Source: Candidatus Hodarchaeota archaeon (GTDB taxonomy: Archaea > Asgardarchaeota > Lokiarchaeia > Sigyniarchaeales > SOKP01). From it: 30,858 nt of DNA. The stretch covers positions 1-30,858 of the forward strand of contig JBHLKB010000001.1 of the NCBI GenBank assembly GCA_048887205.1, in the 5' to 3' direction. The notes under the pieces were generated by a model. It was given only the letters and a program-made list of their open reading frames with translations, was not told the DNA's origin and ran no database searches. The translations under genes were made by a program, and so were the position numbers. Below are positions 6,124 through 23,785 of the stretch, one piece after another; within the stretch, counting starts at the first letter, position 1; every line of letters begins with the position of its first letter.

Positions 6124-6666
6124 TTGACCATAATTATGTCGCAGCGAAAAATACTTTTTAAAATCGTTATTGTCGGAGATGGAGGTGTAGGAAAAAGCAC
6201 TATGGTTCAAAGATTAACTACAGGGCAATTTATTCCTCAGAAAATCACGATTGGGACTGATTTAGCGACATTTGGTATTAATATAGATAATATAAATGCT
6301 ACTTTACAAATTTGGGATTTTGCTGGAGAAAGACGTTTTAGACTTTTTTTACCTCATTATTCTAAGGGTGCAACAGGGTGTTTGCTTTGTTATGATATCA
6401 CAAGGCGTACTAGTTTTGACAGTTTGGATGAATGGTATAATGTTGTTAGCAAAAACGCTGCAGATCCCATATTTATTTTAGTTGGAGAAAAACTTGATTT
6501 AGCTGATATTAGAAGAAGTGTACAATATGAACATGCTGAAGAATTTAAAGAAAAATACAATCTTGACTACTTTTTTGAAACATCTTCAAAGAGTGGTGAA
6601 AATAATAAAAACATTTTCGAAACCTTAACTCGATCAATATTAAAAAAACATAATATTTTAAAATAG
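6124..6666 (+). CDS. Rab-like small GTPase (Ras superfamily)
   Basis: G1 GDGGVGKS, G2 ITIG, G3 WDFAGE, G4 GEKLD, G5 ETSSK; no C-terminal Cys prenylation motif. Start is TTG 6124 or ATG 6136. Confidence 0.95.
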   Translation: MTIIMSQRKILFKIVIVGDGGVGKSTMVQRLTTGQFIPQKITIGTDLATFGINIDNINATLQIWDFAGERRFRLFLPHYSKGATGCLLCYDITRRTSFDSLDEWYNVVSKNAADPIFILVGEKLDLADIRRSVQYEHAEEFKEKYNLDYFFETSSKSGENNKNIFETLTRSILKKHNILK

Positions 6667-8382: not shown

Positions 8383-9642
8383 TTGAGTAATTCCACGACG
8401 CCAGAGCGAATTAATCATGACCTCACCAGTAATAAGATAACAAGAGCAGAAGCCAATCTTTTATATATATCTTTGATTGAAAATTGTGAGGATGTTCATT
8501 ATAGGATTAAGTGTTTAGAAGAATTTGGAAAGATAATTATTAATTCTAAAAAAAATTTTCAAATCTTAGAAAACTATTTAATTTCAGATGTGAATCCATT
8601 AGTGAGATTCATTTCAGCAAAAATTTTGCTGCAAAGATTTCCTAATTTATGTTTAAATCCTTTAATATGGGTAATAGAAAATGATAATTCGATAGTAGTC
8701 CTGAAGGAGCTTATGGCATTAATAAAAGTTTCTGAAGAAAAAAACTCAAAATTGTTATCAGAAAGACTCCTAGACAGATTTACAGAAATTTATGGCACTA
8801 TTCCCAAAGAAGCTGAATTTTTATTGGACATAGAATATGAATTAAATCGAAATTTAGAGGTAGCTTTTTTAAAACCTATGGTAAAGAATAAAACTATTAT
8901 AGCATTGGATTTTGCAGGGAAGAAGCTAAAAAGATTACCAGGCTCTATTGGTAATTTATCAAATTTAGAGTATTTGAATCTATGGGACAACAATTTAACT
9001 ACGTTACCAAAGACAATTGAGTCGCTTAATAATTTGCAATTTTTATACTTAGATTGGAATAAATTTCGAAATATGCCAAATTTGCAGTGGGACAAGTTAA
9101 AATCGCTTAAAAAGTTAAGTTATACTAATAATTCTCAGATAAGTGAATTTCCCAACTCGTTATTTAAACTTATTAAAAAAAACTTTATACAAAAATACAT
9201 TAATGAGGGAGTCCTCTCTGATGACGCTCCTATATTAGGATTATTAGAAATTCTCACAGGGATGAAATTAAAAAAATTAATAAAAAAAGAGAAAATTTCC
9301 AGCTTATATGCTTGCAATTATAAAATAAATCTTAATGGAAATATCAGTGGCATTTATTTATATGGATATCACAGTTTTCAGATTAATGTTATTCCAAACT
9401 GTATAAGTTCTTTAAAATTTTTGGAAGAACTCGTGTTAAGGGATCAAAATATAAACTCCATTCCGGAATTCATTAAGGATATCAATACCCTAAAACTTCT
9501 TGATTTAAGGAGAAATAATATTGAAATTATTCCAGAATCATTATTAGAAATAAAATCATTGGAATTCTTAGATTTAGGAGAGAATAAAATAAAAGAACTG
9601 CCTAAATCAGTAAAAGTTTCTCATATTGATCTTTGGTTCTGA
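8383..9642 (+). CDS. HEAT-repeat plus leucine-rich-repeat protein
   Basis: HEAT-like RIKCLEEFG...YLISDVNPLVRFISAKIL; 23-aa LRRs LKRLPGSIGNLSNLEYLNLWDNNLTTLP and INSIPEFIKDINTLKLLDLRRNNIEIIP; TTG start. Confidence 0.9.
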   Translation: MSNSTTPERINHDLTSNKITRAEANLLYISLIENCEDVHYRIKCLEEFGKIIINSKKNFQILENYLISDVNPLVRFISAKILLQRFPNLCLNPLIWVIENDNSIVVLKELMALIKVSEEKNSKLLSERLLDRFTEIYGTIPKEAEFLLDIEYELNRNLEVAFLKPMVKNKTIIALDFAGKKLKRLPGSIGNLSNLEYLNLWDNNLTTLPKTIESLNNLQFLYLDWNKFRNMPNLQWDKLKSLKKLSYTNNSQISEFPNSLFKLIKKNFIQKYINEGVLSDDAPILGLLEILTGMKLKKLIKKEKISSLYACNYKINLNGNISGIYLYGYHSFQINVIPNCISSLKFLEELVLRDQNINSIPEFIKDINTLKLLDLRRNNIEIIPESLLEIKSLEFLDLGENKIKELPKSVKVSHIDLWF

Positions 9643-10900: not shown

Positions 10901-11929
10901 CTAAACAAAAAAAGTTGAAATTAAATACCATGAGAATATCATTGTTCCTATCCCTAGAAAAATTGAAATTGGAAGACCAGGCAAAATTTTATTTCTTTTT
11001 AATCCCGAAATAGTAATACCAGTACCAATTATTATAGAAATTGCAGTAAAAATCATTACTATTAGATTATTGGATTGAACGAGGGCACTAGAAGTAAGCA
11101 TACTATAAAAAGCTAAATCACCTATACCAATCTCTAGTTTTGAAGTGTCATATTCATAATCTCCCGATTTAATTTTACCTTCTAATTCTGTTTCATTGGA
11201 ATTTGATGCAATATCTATTAATTGTTTAATTGGACCGCGTTTATATAATACAGCAAATATATCCCAACATGAAATCCCAATTAGTATGGCTAATGTTGTC
11301 CAGAGAGGCATTAAAACTCCCATTGATGCTCCTATTAACAATCCTATATATAAAACAATAAAATTTTTAGTTTTGATTGACTTTGAACCAAAATATCTAT
11401 ATAACATGAATATGGTGAAAACAGCAGTAAAAAAAATTAATTCAAAATAAAACAAATAGTATACACGAGGTATTGTGTTAAATGCTAACCATATTATTAT
11501 ATCACCAAAAAACCAAGTTTGAAAAAATCCAATCAAAGCGAAACTAAATCCAAAGATATACATTAAAACCCCAATACCCTTTCTTTTTATTACAAATATG
11601 ATAATGAAAGCAGATATTACTGCTAAAGATGTATAAATTAAGCCATTCAAAACTCCGCCCAATAATCCCAATTCACTTTCTGGGAAATATCCCCCATCAA
11701 TTTGTATACCCGCTTCAATATATGTCAGATATGCTAAAATTCCCGAAATTATAACAACAGTAATTATTGGAACTGGATATAAATTTCTTTTTATTCTATA
11801 AGTTGGAAAGAAATGAGGTATAAAATCTTTTTTAATTATTTCTTTATCTGTTTCTGCTTCAATTCCAGATTCTTCGAAATTATCATTCCTTAATTTGGTC
11901 TCCTCAGAATTTTTTGAGATATCTGTCAT
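10901..11929 (-). CDS. Presenilin-type GxGD intramembrane aspartyl protease (MEROPS A22)
   Basis: About 9 hydrophobic segments; first Asp in ISCWDIFAVL (D223), second in GIGDLAFYSML (D271); PAL-equivalent LPGLPISI. Confidence 0.93.
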   Translation of the reverse strand: MTDISKNSEETKLRNDNFEESGIEAETDKEIIKKDFIPHFFPTYRIKRNLYPVPIITVVIISGILAYLTYIEAGIQIDGGYFPESELGLLGGVLNGLIYTSLAVISAFIIIFVIKRKGIGVLMYIFGFSFALIGFFQTWFFGDIIIWLAFNTIPRVYYLFYFELIFFTAVFTIFMLYRYFGSKSIKTKNFIVLYIGLLIGASMGVLMPLWTTLAILIGISCWDIFAVLYKRGPIKQLIDIASNSNETELEGKIKSGDYEYDTSKLEIGIGDLAFYSMLTSSALVQSNNLIVMIFTAISIIIGTGITISGLKRNKILPGLPISIFLGIGTMIFSWYLISTFFV

Positions 11930-12086
11930 TTTTTATTAATATTAATAATAGAAAAATAATTAGTTTTAATTTATAATATTATTAATGACTTAAATACCTA
12001 TTAATAATAATTTTAAACCCAATTTTTCAATTTTTTATTGAAAGAAAGAAACTTCTTATAGAAAGTAACTTATAATTCTTCTGATA

Positions 12087-12833
12087 ATGCCAAAACTTCA
12101 AAAATATGAGCAAAAAATTCGAAGATATAAAGAAAAATTAAAAAAATTAATTACACGAATAGGAATTTCTTACATTGAAGAATTTGAATTAAAGGATGAA
12201 GTCTCAAGTAAACTATTATTCCCTTGTCATTTAGGAATTCTATTCTTTGGAGAATACGATATAGATTTCTTTGAAAGAATCAAATTTAATTTAAATCAAG
12301 TATATGATTCTTTTTTCTTTGGTATTACAAATTTAGGATGTTATAATTTTTCTATCAAGCAATTTTCTAAAGGTGTTAAAAAGGAATATAAAGAAATGCA
12401 AAAACCCTTTGATAAAATGGAAATACATCCAACTAATAAATTCTATCAAATACTAATAAACAAGAGGAAGGAAGAAAATCTTGGATTAATAATTGCTATA
12501 ACTGATCTTCCTATATATTCAAGTAGTAATGATAATATATTGTTTCTATTTGGAGAAACTCACTTAAAACACCGATGTTGTGTAGTATCATCATTAAAAT
12601 TAAAAGAACAATTCTATAATAGACCTGATGATCATCCACTTTTTGAACAGCGAGTATTTAAAGAAATTATCCATGAAGTTGGTCACTTAATAATAAGTCC
12701 TGACCATTGTCTCAAAAATTCATGCGTTATGCGATTTTCAAATAACGTGAGAGAAATTGATAAGAAATCAATTAATTTTTGTGATGAATGTAAAAAAAAA
12801 CTATATAAAGTTAGAGATCGATTCAATTTCTAA
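12087..12833 (+). CDS. Archaemetzincin-like zinc metalloprotease with N-terminal extension
   Basis: IIAITDLPIY, FLFGE, CVVSSLKL, FKEIIHEVGH...HC, Met-turn CVMRFSN and FCDEC (Cys4 structural site). Confidence 0.9.
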   Translation: MPKLQKYEQKIRRYKEKLKKLITRIGISYIEEFELKDEVSSKLLFPCHLGILFFGEYDIDFFERIKFNLNQVYDSFFFGITNLGCYNFSIKQFSKGVKKEYKEMQKPFDKMEIHPTNKFYQILINKRKEENLGLIIAITDLPIYSSSNDNILFLFGETHLKHRCCVVSSLKLKEQFYNRPDDHPLFEQRVFKEIIHEVGHLIISPDHCLKNSCVMRFSNNVREIDKKSINFCDECKKKLYKVRDRFNF

Positions 12834-22828: not shown

Positions 22829-23785
22829 ATGAAAATTCTATTGTTCGGTCCTGCTGGAGCAGGTAAGACATCACTAATGCGAACGACTTGTTTAGGATAT
22901 AATTTTATGAAAGTGTTAGATTTAAAACCCACTAAAGGAGTTTCAAGAGAAAATTTTATCTTTCGTGGTATAATGGAACTCAATGTATGGGATTTGGGGG
23001 GACAGGAGAGATATATGGAGAGATACTTCTCTGAATCTCAACGTGAACTGATATTTTCAGAAGCCACGACAGCAGTTTTTATGGTTGATTCTGCTGCGGT
23101 GGATCCTAAAGTTAGAGAAATATTTGATAACTTCTTAAAGTATTTATTCCAATTTTCTCCTAAAATTGCTATGGTTTATGTTCTATTAAATAAAATAGAC
23201 TTACAAGAATCTGAAGAAGATGAATATTACAAGATCTTAACAGAAAATTTAAACGACGGTTTAATGGCAAAACTTTCATTCACCCCTGTGTCTGTTAAAG
23301 AAGGAAGTGCTCAACATAGACTGATTGAAATATTAGATTATGAGATTCAAAAGAATACTTTATCAATGCAACGTTTAGGAAAAATTCGACATTTATTAGA
23401 TGAGTTAAAAATCAATACTTTATCGGAATATCTTTTATTTAACCAACCTGATGGATTATTAATTTCCTCTACCTTTGGTAAATTTGAATCGAAACCATTA
23501 AGGTTTATGAAATTTGAAATCGGAACCTTAGATTCTAATATTTATAATATTTATCAACAGATTATGGAACTTCAAAATATATCTATCCTTTCTCCTTTAT
23601 CCTTGTCTACTATTGTATACGAATCAGAGAATTGTTGGATTTTAGTGAAAGAAGTTAGTAACGGAGCAGTTTTGATGGCAGTAACGAGAAATAAAAGGCT
23701 AGAAGTCTTTTCTGGTGTTATGAACGCGCTAACTGGAGATGCATTTAAAAATTTGAAACTATATTTAAAATCTCCTGAATTTTAA
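22829..23785 (+). CDS. Rag/Gtr1-like GTPase with C-terminal roadblock-like domain
   Basis: G1 GPAGAGKTS, G2 KPT, G3 WDLGGQ followed by Rag-type YMERYFSESQRELIF, G4 NKID; C-terminal region of about 130 aa with YLLFNQPDGLLISS and WILVKEVSNGAVLMAV. Confidence 0.88.
   Translation: MKILLFGPAGAGKTSLMRTTCLGYNFMKVLDLKPTKGVSRENFIFRGIMELNVWDLGGQERYMERYFSESQRELIFSEATTAVFMVDSAAVDPKVREIFDNFLKYLFQFSPKIAMVYVLLNKIDLQESEEDEYYKILTENLNDGLMAKLSFTPVSVKEGSAQHRLIEILDYEIQKNTLSMQRLGKIRHLLDELKINTLSEYLLFNQPDGLLISSTFGKFESKPLRFMKFEIGTLDSNIYNIYQQIMELQNISILSPLSLSTIVYESENCWILVKEVSNGAVLMAVTRNKRLEVFSGVMNALTGDAFKNLKLYLKSPEF

Follow-up and report, generated by a model that had tools for sequence, protein, structure and literature searches.

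Does an archaeon encode a presenilin and, if so, how would such a protein work? The question is raised by one open reading frame in the 30,858-nucleotide stretch of Asgard archaeal DNA analysed here (the window). This frame occupies positions 10901–11929 of the minus strand, starts with ATG and runs uninterrupted, encoding a protein of 342 aa with nine predicted transmembrane (TM) helices. We describe it as the gene for a presenilin-type intramembrane aspartyl protease (PF01080, MEROPS A22A-like). Three kinds of protein serve for comparison: the eukaryotic presenilins PS1 and PS2 of gamma-secretase (PF01080, A22A), SPP and SPPL2a (PF04258, A22B; PDB 9K92/9K93), and the methanogen protein PSH, which is MCMJR1 of Methanoculleus marisnigri (PDB 4HYC/4HYG/4Y6K; PF06550, NF041679). 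PSH is used as a cofactor-free surrogate for presenilin, the Alzheimer-related protease.

The content of the window is typical of Asgard archaea and includes a methenyl-H4MPT cyclohydrolase (MCH). A Ras-family small GTPase (6124–6666), a leucine-rich-repeat protein (8383–9642) and a Rag-like GTPase (22829–23785), all on the plus strand, form a dense eukaryote-like signalling set beside the presenilin gene within the same 30 kb. Scans of the window for tRNAs and Rfam families found nothing. The sequencing runs that contain the stretch are of sediment and mangrove metagenome DNA only; no RNA run is listed.

Family and fold of the protein

Which sequence features mark the protein? Three motifs were located, all on the minus strand. 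The first, ISCWDIFAVLYKRGPIKQLIDIA in TM6 (11207–11275, residues 219–241), carries the catalytic aspartate D223 (codon 11261–11263). The second, GIGDLAFYSML in TM7 (11096–11128, residues 268–278), carries the other, D271 (codon 11117–11119); 47 residues lie between the two aspartates. The third, KILPGLPISI (10961–10990, residues 314–323), stands at the start of TM9 and supplies the equivalent of the PAL motif (PGLP, residues 317–320). A preliminary description of this DNA had quoted these motifs and this spacing, and had set them beside strings from human PS1 and from PSH. All three motifs are present in the frame; the PS1 strings can be read in the PS1 chains that phmmer aligned to the protein, and the PSH string GMGDLIMP stands in the solved chain 4hyc.

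In TM6 the protein has WD, a variant of YD, followed by the presenilin-type signature KGP[IL]K. In TM7, GxGD is followed by FYS, as in presenilins, whereas xxxP is the form found in PSH and SPP. The per-group motif consensus assigns WD to the window's clade as a typical feature and YD to the other groups. Among archaeal and eukaryotic members alike the consensus of the PAL equivalent is LP[AG]LP, with Gly in place of Ala in most archaeal members; eukaryotic presenilins have YD and PALP where the window's protein has WD and PGLP. Across an alignment of 84 sequences the columns of D223, V227, G232, G268, G270, D271, G302, P317, L319 and P320 are invariant, and those of P233, F274 and Y275 almost so.

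How does the protein compare with the two other families? The motifs of PSH (YDAISVYRTKHM, GMGDLIMP and NPQAGLP) differ from those of the window's protein, which lacks the family's GxGDxxxP and YDAxSVYxTKHM patterns. The GxGDxxxP and QPALLY-type motifs of SPP and SPPL2a are likewise missing. Neither PF06550 (PSH) nor PF04258 (SPP) matched at E ≤ 1, and an NCBIfam scan, in which one spurious match of 17 bits was all that came up, did not return NF041679. The PF01080 model, on the other hand, for which the cut-off is 34.3 bits, matched with 80.6 (E = 1.3e-22), in two stretches that correspond to the N- and C-terminal halves. When solved structures were searched with phmmer, chains of PS1 and PS2 alone were matched (best PS1 E = 3.8e-13); PSH chains gave no match at E ≤ 10. 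Profile–profile comparison with hhalign points the same way. The Lokiarchaeal clade scored 228.5 against eukaryotic presenilins and 99.3 against PSH, the eukaryotic presenilins themselves scoring 68.1 against PSH; against the other archaeal PF01080-type homologues the Lokiarchaeal score was 305.

The fold was examined in an AlphaFold2 model built from an 84-sequence alignment (pLDDT 88.2, pTM 0.85). The model, which is of high confidence, has nine long helices and shows the nine-helix presenilin fold. The top Foldseek match was ligand-bound human PS1 (TM 0.71/0.78, identity 21–22%), while PSH and SPPL2a lay near TM 0.5 and 14% identity. In structural alignments the identity is 23% to PS1, against 14–15% to PSH. 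A structural search of Swiss-Prot returned presenilins as all of its best 28 matches. The tree presented below contains no SPP or SPPL sequences, so it is the scores of HMMs, profiles and structures that underlie the topology of the three families. Four independent measures (profile HMMs, profile–profile scores, motif consensus and modelled fold) place the window's protein with the presenilin (PF01080) type and with neither the PSH nor the SPP type, and the preliminary description, which had read the motifs in this way, is borne out on this point.

One feature of the model sets the protein apart from PS1 and PS2. By DSSP the residues TYRIK (43–47; 11789–11803, minus strand) form a short N-terminal strand, which in the model pairs on the cytoplasmic face with strand 264–268 (11126–11140), immediately before GxGD; the block has a pLDDT of 94. 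TYRIK is conserved in part within the window's clade, as judged from the group consensus. In PS1 this is the region in which a hybrid sheet arises between enzyme and bound substrate. As modelled, strand 43–47 could be a structural or a self-occupying element.

Topology, cofactors and mode of action

How would the protein lie in the membrane, and with what partners? The charges of its loops obey the positive-inside rule for a protein whose N-terminus is in and whose C-terminus is out. This is the topology of PS1; that of SPP is inverted, and hence opposite to the one predicted here. The structural match to SPPL2a is also weaker than that to PS1.

In gamma-secretase, eukaryotic PS1 and PS2 have nicastrin, Aph-1 and Pen-2 as partners. 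The preliminary description had suggested looking for these; none of the three was found in the window's own genome, which is 83% complete. Among 251 fairly complete Asgard genomes, neither Aph-1 nor Pen-2 occurs above cut-off in a single one. The nicastrin domain gave marginal, partial matches in 17 of the 251, six of them above cut-off, and in none of the 38 from the window's genus. These matches are likely to be cross-matches to peptidase domains, judging from their partial cover of the model and from frames that are long or of unrelated size. We judged a Pen-2 match of 12.9 bits in the window's genome to be noise, as we did one match each to Aph-1 and Pen-2 elsewhere in the phylum, both with stop codons inside.

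The spacing of the two aspartates is a second difference. Eukaryotic presenilins have a median of 131 residues between them; with 47, the window's protein lacks the long autoproteolytic loop. This loop had been called minimal. Short it is, yet in other archaeal members the spacing is shorter still, at 36–41 residues. Of the features that characterize gamma-secretase, then, the obligate partners look absent here, and the long endoproteolytic cytoplasmic loop is missing.

What does such a protein do? We think it probable that this protein of nine TM helices is a presenilin-type intramembrane aspartyl protease that stands alone and needs no cofactor, one that would work like PSH while being built like PS1. 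D223 and D271 would activate a water molecule within the membrane and cut the TM helix of single-pass membrane proteins. In the PS1-like orientation the N-terminus and the loop between TM6 and TM7 would be cytoplasmic, and the C-terminus would lie outside. Since the charge distribution predicts the topology of PS1, substrates would be expected to have type I orientation. The enzyme would act without nicastrin, Aph-1 and Pen-2, as PSH does, since these three eukaryotic cofactors, the only ones searched for, were not found.

Might the protein instead perform SPP-like housekeeping, clearing the type II remnants of signal peptides and anchors, its likeness to presenilin being one of sequence and not of substrate choice? 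For that job no gene of PSH or SPP type is present in the window's genome. PSH-type genes are nearly missing from the phylum as a whole, with two strong matches in 400 genomes, and the near-universal conservation of the presenilin-type gene would suit a housekeeping role. However, the predicted topology is that of PS1 and not the inverted one of SPP, and both the motifs and the modelled fold are nearest to PS1. We consider this role improbable. One strong PSH-type gene (locus L034, G057:C15) sits on a contig of 5.9 kb, and its product shares 97% identity with a protein from Bathyarchaeota; it probably entered the genome bin as a contaminant.

A role in ion conduction would account for the protein in quite another way. 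The transporter classification employed in a survey of 2021 (PMC7997004) treats presenilins as leak channels; the survey places the Asgard homologues in the presenilin ER calcium leak channel family, suggesting for them a part in calcium control. Were the main role that of a cation (calcium) leak channel and not of a protease, the catalytic and substrate-gating residues would hardly be expected to be invariant, as they all are, across very distant lineages. Such invariance indicates selection on proteolysis, and the conserved neighbour of the gene is itself a peptidase. It is very unlikely that leakage is the main function; a dual role, as protease and leak channel, is possible. Less likely still is an inactive pseudo-protease retained as a scaffold. 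The replacement of Tyr by Trp beside the first aspartate in the window's clade might be taken to hint at it, but both aspartates, both glycines of GxGD and P-x-L-P are invariant in 84 diverse sequences, and superposition of the model on PS1 in its active, ligand-bound state gives 2.6 Å.

Archaeal distribution and eukaryotic presenilin

Is this active-site arrangement peculiar to the window's lineage? Of close homologues alone there are 531, at 68–87% identity, and at E ≤ 1e-10 a library of 1.84 billion sequences yields 166 representative proteins; with the E values for PF01080 and PS1 given above, this puts the similarity far outside what chance would give. Searched exhaustively, the 1.84 billion representatives gave 721 relatives; GxGD..FYS is found in all, and P[AG]LP in nearly all, of the best 150 of these 721 covering the region. 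PF01080 matched 307 of 400 Asgard genomes, 255 of them above cut-off, and 129 of the 134 genomes of the window's own family (f1).

The distribution extends well beyond the Asgard archaea. With a degenerate TM6 pattern taken from the short basal forms, 343 genes were confirmed in species genomes. The best 80 of these 343 come from Thermoproteota (Thermofilaceae among them), many Bathyarchaeia, one MAG of Nitrososphaeria, two of Aenigmatarchaeota and one labelled Methanocella. All 21 basal archaeal representatives pass PF01080. The homologues from Bathyarchaeia, Thermoproteota, Nitrososphaeria and Aenigmatarchaeota are of the same family as the window's protein and share its motifs, but at about 290 aa they are smaller, with next to no N-terminal extension and the short aspartate spacing given above; most are annotated as hypothetical. 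The per-group consensus shows the three ‘presenilin’ signatures to be common to every archaeal group and to eukaryotes, PSH having a set of its own. The preliminary description had presented the gene as a close relative of gamma-secretase's catalytic subunit. The presenilin type stands, but it is not special to this gene or clade, the motifs being pan-archaeal.

The sister family f3, of the same order as the window's genome (loci L004–L012 and L017), has longer presenilin-type proteins of 371–465 aa with long N-termini. Their aspartates are 69–129 (about 75) residues apart, GSGD replaces a GxGD in which x is elsewhere hydrophobic, and PALP is as in eukaryotes. In some Asgard genomes the presenilin-type gene occurs twice, on separate contigs or far apart (L134 and L139 in genome G007, L137 and L140 in G002), which indicates paralogy within the family.

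How are the archaeal and eukaryotic proteins related? A maximum-likelihood tree was built from 96 rows and 303 columns under LG+C20 PMSF and rooted on PSH-type sequences. Nitrososphaeria form the first branch, followed by a clade of Thermoproteota and Aenigmatarchaeota. Next comes a 98/95 clade that unites Bathyarchaeia with a further 98/95 clade, which holds all Asgard-labelled rows together with the eukaryotes. The labelled archaeal rows of this inner clade are Asgard without exception; the TACK and DPANN lineages, and with them the non-Asgard homologues described above, branch outside it. The eukaryotic presenilins form one 100/100 clade with no archaeal row within it, which removes the concern, raised in the preliminary description, that the window's protein might nest among them. 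That protein falls in a 95/99 clade that joins f1, to which it belongs, with the sister family f3. We conclude that the window's presenilin is a member of an archaeal family, conserved by vertical descent, that stands nearer to eukaryotic presenilin than do PSH and SPP.

Which Asgard lineage is nearest to the eukaryotes? Two quick trees disagree, one placing f3 with the window's clade and the other placing it with the eukaryotes. In AU tests, a topology that groups all archaeal members and leaves the eukaryotes outside was not rejected (p = 0.38), nor was one in which the eukaryotes and the window's clade are sisters (p = 0.32). Because the quick trees disagree and the tests reject neither alternative, we claim no specific sister of the eukaryotes. 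Most likely, to judge from the tree, the window's protein is of the lineage that gave rise to eukaryotic presenilin. As regards the origin of gamma-secretase, the tree favours descent of eukaryotic presenilin from inside the Asgard archaea, the three accessory subunits being later additions.

Although it is from eukaryotes that PF01080 is best known, the idea that the gene was recently acquired from one of them, or that the assembly contains contaminating eukaryotic DNA, is effectively refuted by a eukaryotic clade that excludes every archaeal row, by the presence of the gene in nearly every genome of its family, by its GC content of 28% in a window of 30%, and by archaeal flanking genes such as MCH and archaemetzincin on the 30.9-kb contig.

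What use might the family have? Being nearer to PS1 in identity and signatures, small, short in the loop and apparently without partners, the archaeal PF01080 proteins could make a better minimal model of PS1 than PSH does. Presenilin homologues in Loki, Heimdall and MK-D1 were mentioned in passing by a survey of 2021 (PMC7997004), and the PF01080 label was already attached to these proteins in the sequence collection that we searched. On the practical side, the tested archaeal relatives of the window's protein match no NCBIfam model, whereas a true PSH-type protein scores 285 bits against NF041679; this blank agrees with the label ‘hypothetical protein’ carried by the named close homologues.

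The archaemetzincin neighbour

What lies beside the presenilin gene? An intergenic region of 157 nt with 13% GC (11930–12086) separates it from a divergently transcribed gene on the plus strand (12087–12833), a neighbour by which the locus differs further from PS1 and PS2. Its product, of 248 aa, is a probable archaemetzincin (Peptidase_M54) paralog that matches PF07998 with 76.4 bits, above the cut-off; against the NCBIfam model archmetzin it scores 111 bits, below the cut-off of 145. The archaemetzincin signature is HExxHxxGxxHCx4CxMx17CxxC. In the window's copy the zinc motif HEVGHLIISPDHC (12672–12710, plus strand) is one residue longer than HExxHxxGxxHC, retaining the His and Cys ligands with their spacing increased by one and with Ser in place of Gly.

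The divergence is shared within the family. Presenilin-linked M54 paralogs of f1 have the longer zinc motif HExxHxxxGxxHC; an N-terminal extension of about 65 aa, basic in character, is common to them and the window's copy. Most f1 genomes possess two M54 genes, of which the presenilin-linked copy falls in a separate, long-branched 100/100 clade. The unlinked copies, including a second, partial one in the window's own genome, are canonical.

How often are the two genes adjacent? All fetched loci were searched with the window's archaemetzincin. At nine of the 11 other f1 loci an M54 gene stands beside the presenilin gene, head-to-head as in the window. In Bathyarchaeia 50 of 61 loci have one, upstream on the same strand and ending at the start of presenilin; here the partner is a canonical archaemetzincin that abuts the presenilin gene, and not a divergent paralog as in the window. 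The one f33 locus likewise has it upstream on the same strand. None was seen in Thermoprotei (0 of 10 loci), in f19, f28 and f18 (0/9, 0/5 and 0/3), or in f3 (0/10, with short flanks). The archaemetzincin–presenilin pairs are found among loci L013–L033 and L056–L125.

Linkage in two phyla and in two arrangements argues for a functional tie. On the other hand, the linkage is not universal: besides the groups in which no adjacency was seen, there is f3, in which none of 14 genomes has an M54 gene and 13 have the presenilin. We give somewhat less than even odds to the idea, drawn from gene order, that presenilin and the divergently transcribed archaemetzincin act together. The paralog, a soluble zinc peptidase that is probably cytoplasmic, would either shorten substrates within their cytoplasmic part or break down the fragment that is set free on that side of the membrane. 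A co-fold of presenilin (alignment A2) with archaemetzincin (A3) scored 0.00; run without controls, it speaks neither for nor against binding.

Could the tie be ancient? A more speculative proposal, which we think rather unlikely as a whole, is that the two proteins constitute an archaeal two-protease module older than the split of Asgard and TACK, in which the intramembrane cut would come before or after a cytoplasmic zinc-peptidase step. Eukaryotic presenilin would then be a vertical descendant of the Asgard version that took on nicastrin, Aph-1 and Pen-2 at a later stage. To our knowledge, no natural substrate in archaea has been named for either the presenilin-type or the archaemetzincin family. 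If true, the module would provide a first physiological context for both orphan protease families, the vertebrate archaemetzincins AMZ1 and AMZ2 included. In either case the recurrent linkage furnishes a concrete, testable hypothesis for two families of proteases. Archaemetzincins are described as having no known physiological role (PMC3427221).

Beyond the passing mention in PMC7997004, we found no paper devoted to the archaeal PF01080 family or to a link between presenilin and archaemetzincin, in a search that left subscription journals mostly outside its reach, so that an earlier description is possible; nor did any of 35 papers that mention archaemetzincins appear among those retrieved for presenilin. 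Within the searchable literature three things seem undescribed: a pan-archaeal family nearer to PS1 than PSH is, the position of the eukaryotic presenilins within the Asgard branch of the maximum-likelihood tree, and the recurrent linkage of presenilin to archaemetzincin.

On the 16.8-kb contig JBLNCY010000063.1 (L100), from a MAG labelled Methanocella sp., an archaemetzincin–presenilin pair nests inside Bathyarchaeia in the tree; mis-binning or transfer is a possible explanation.
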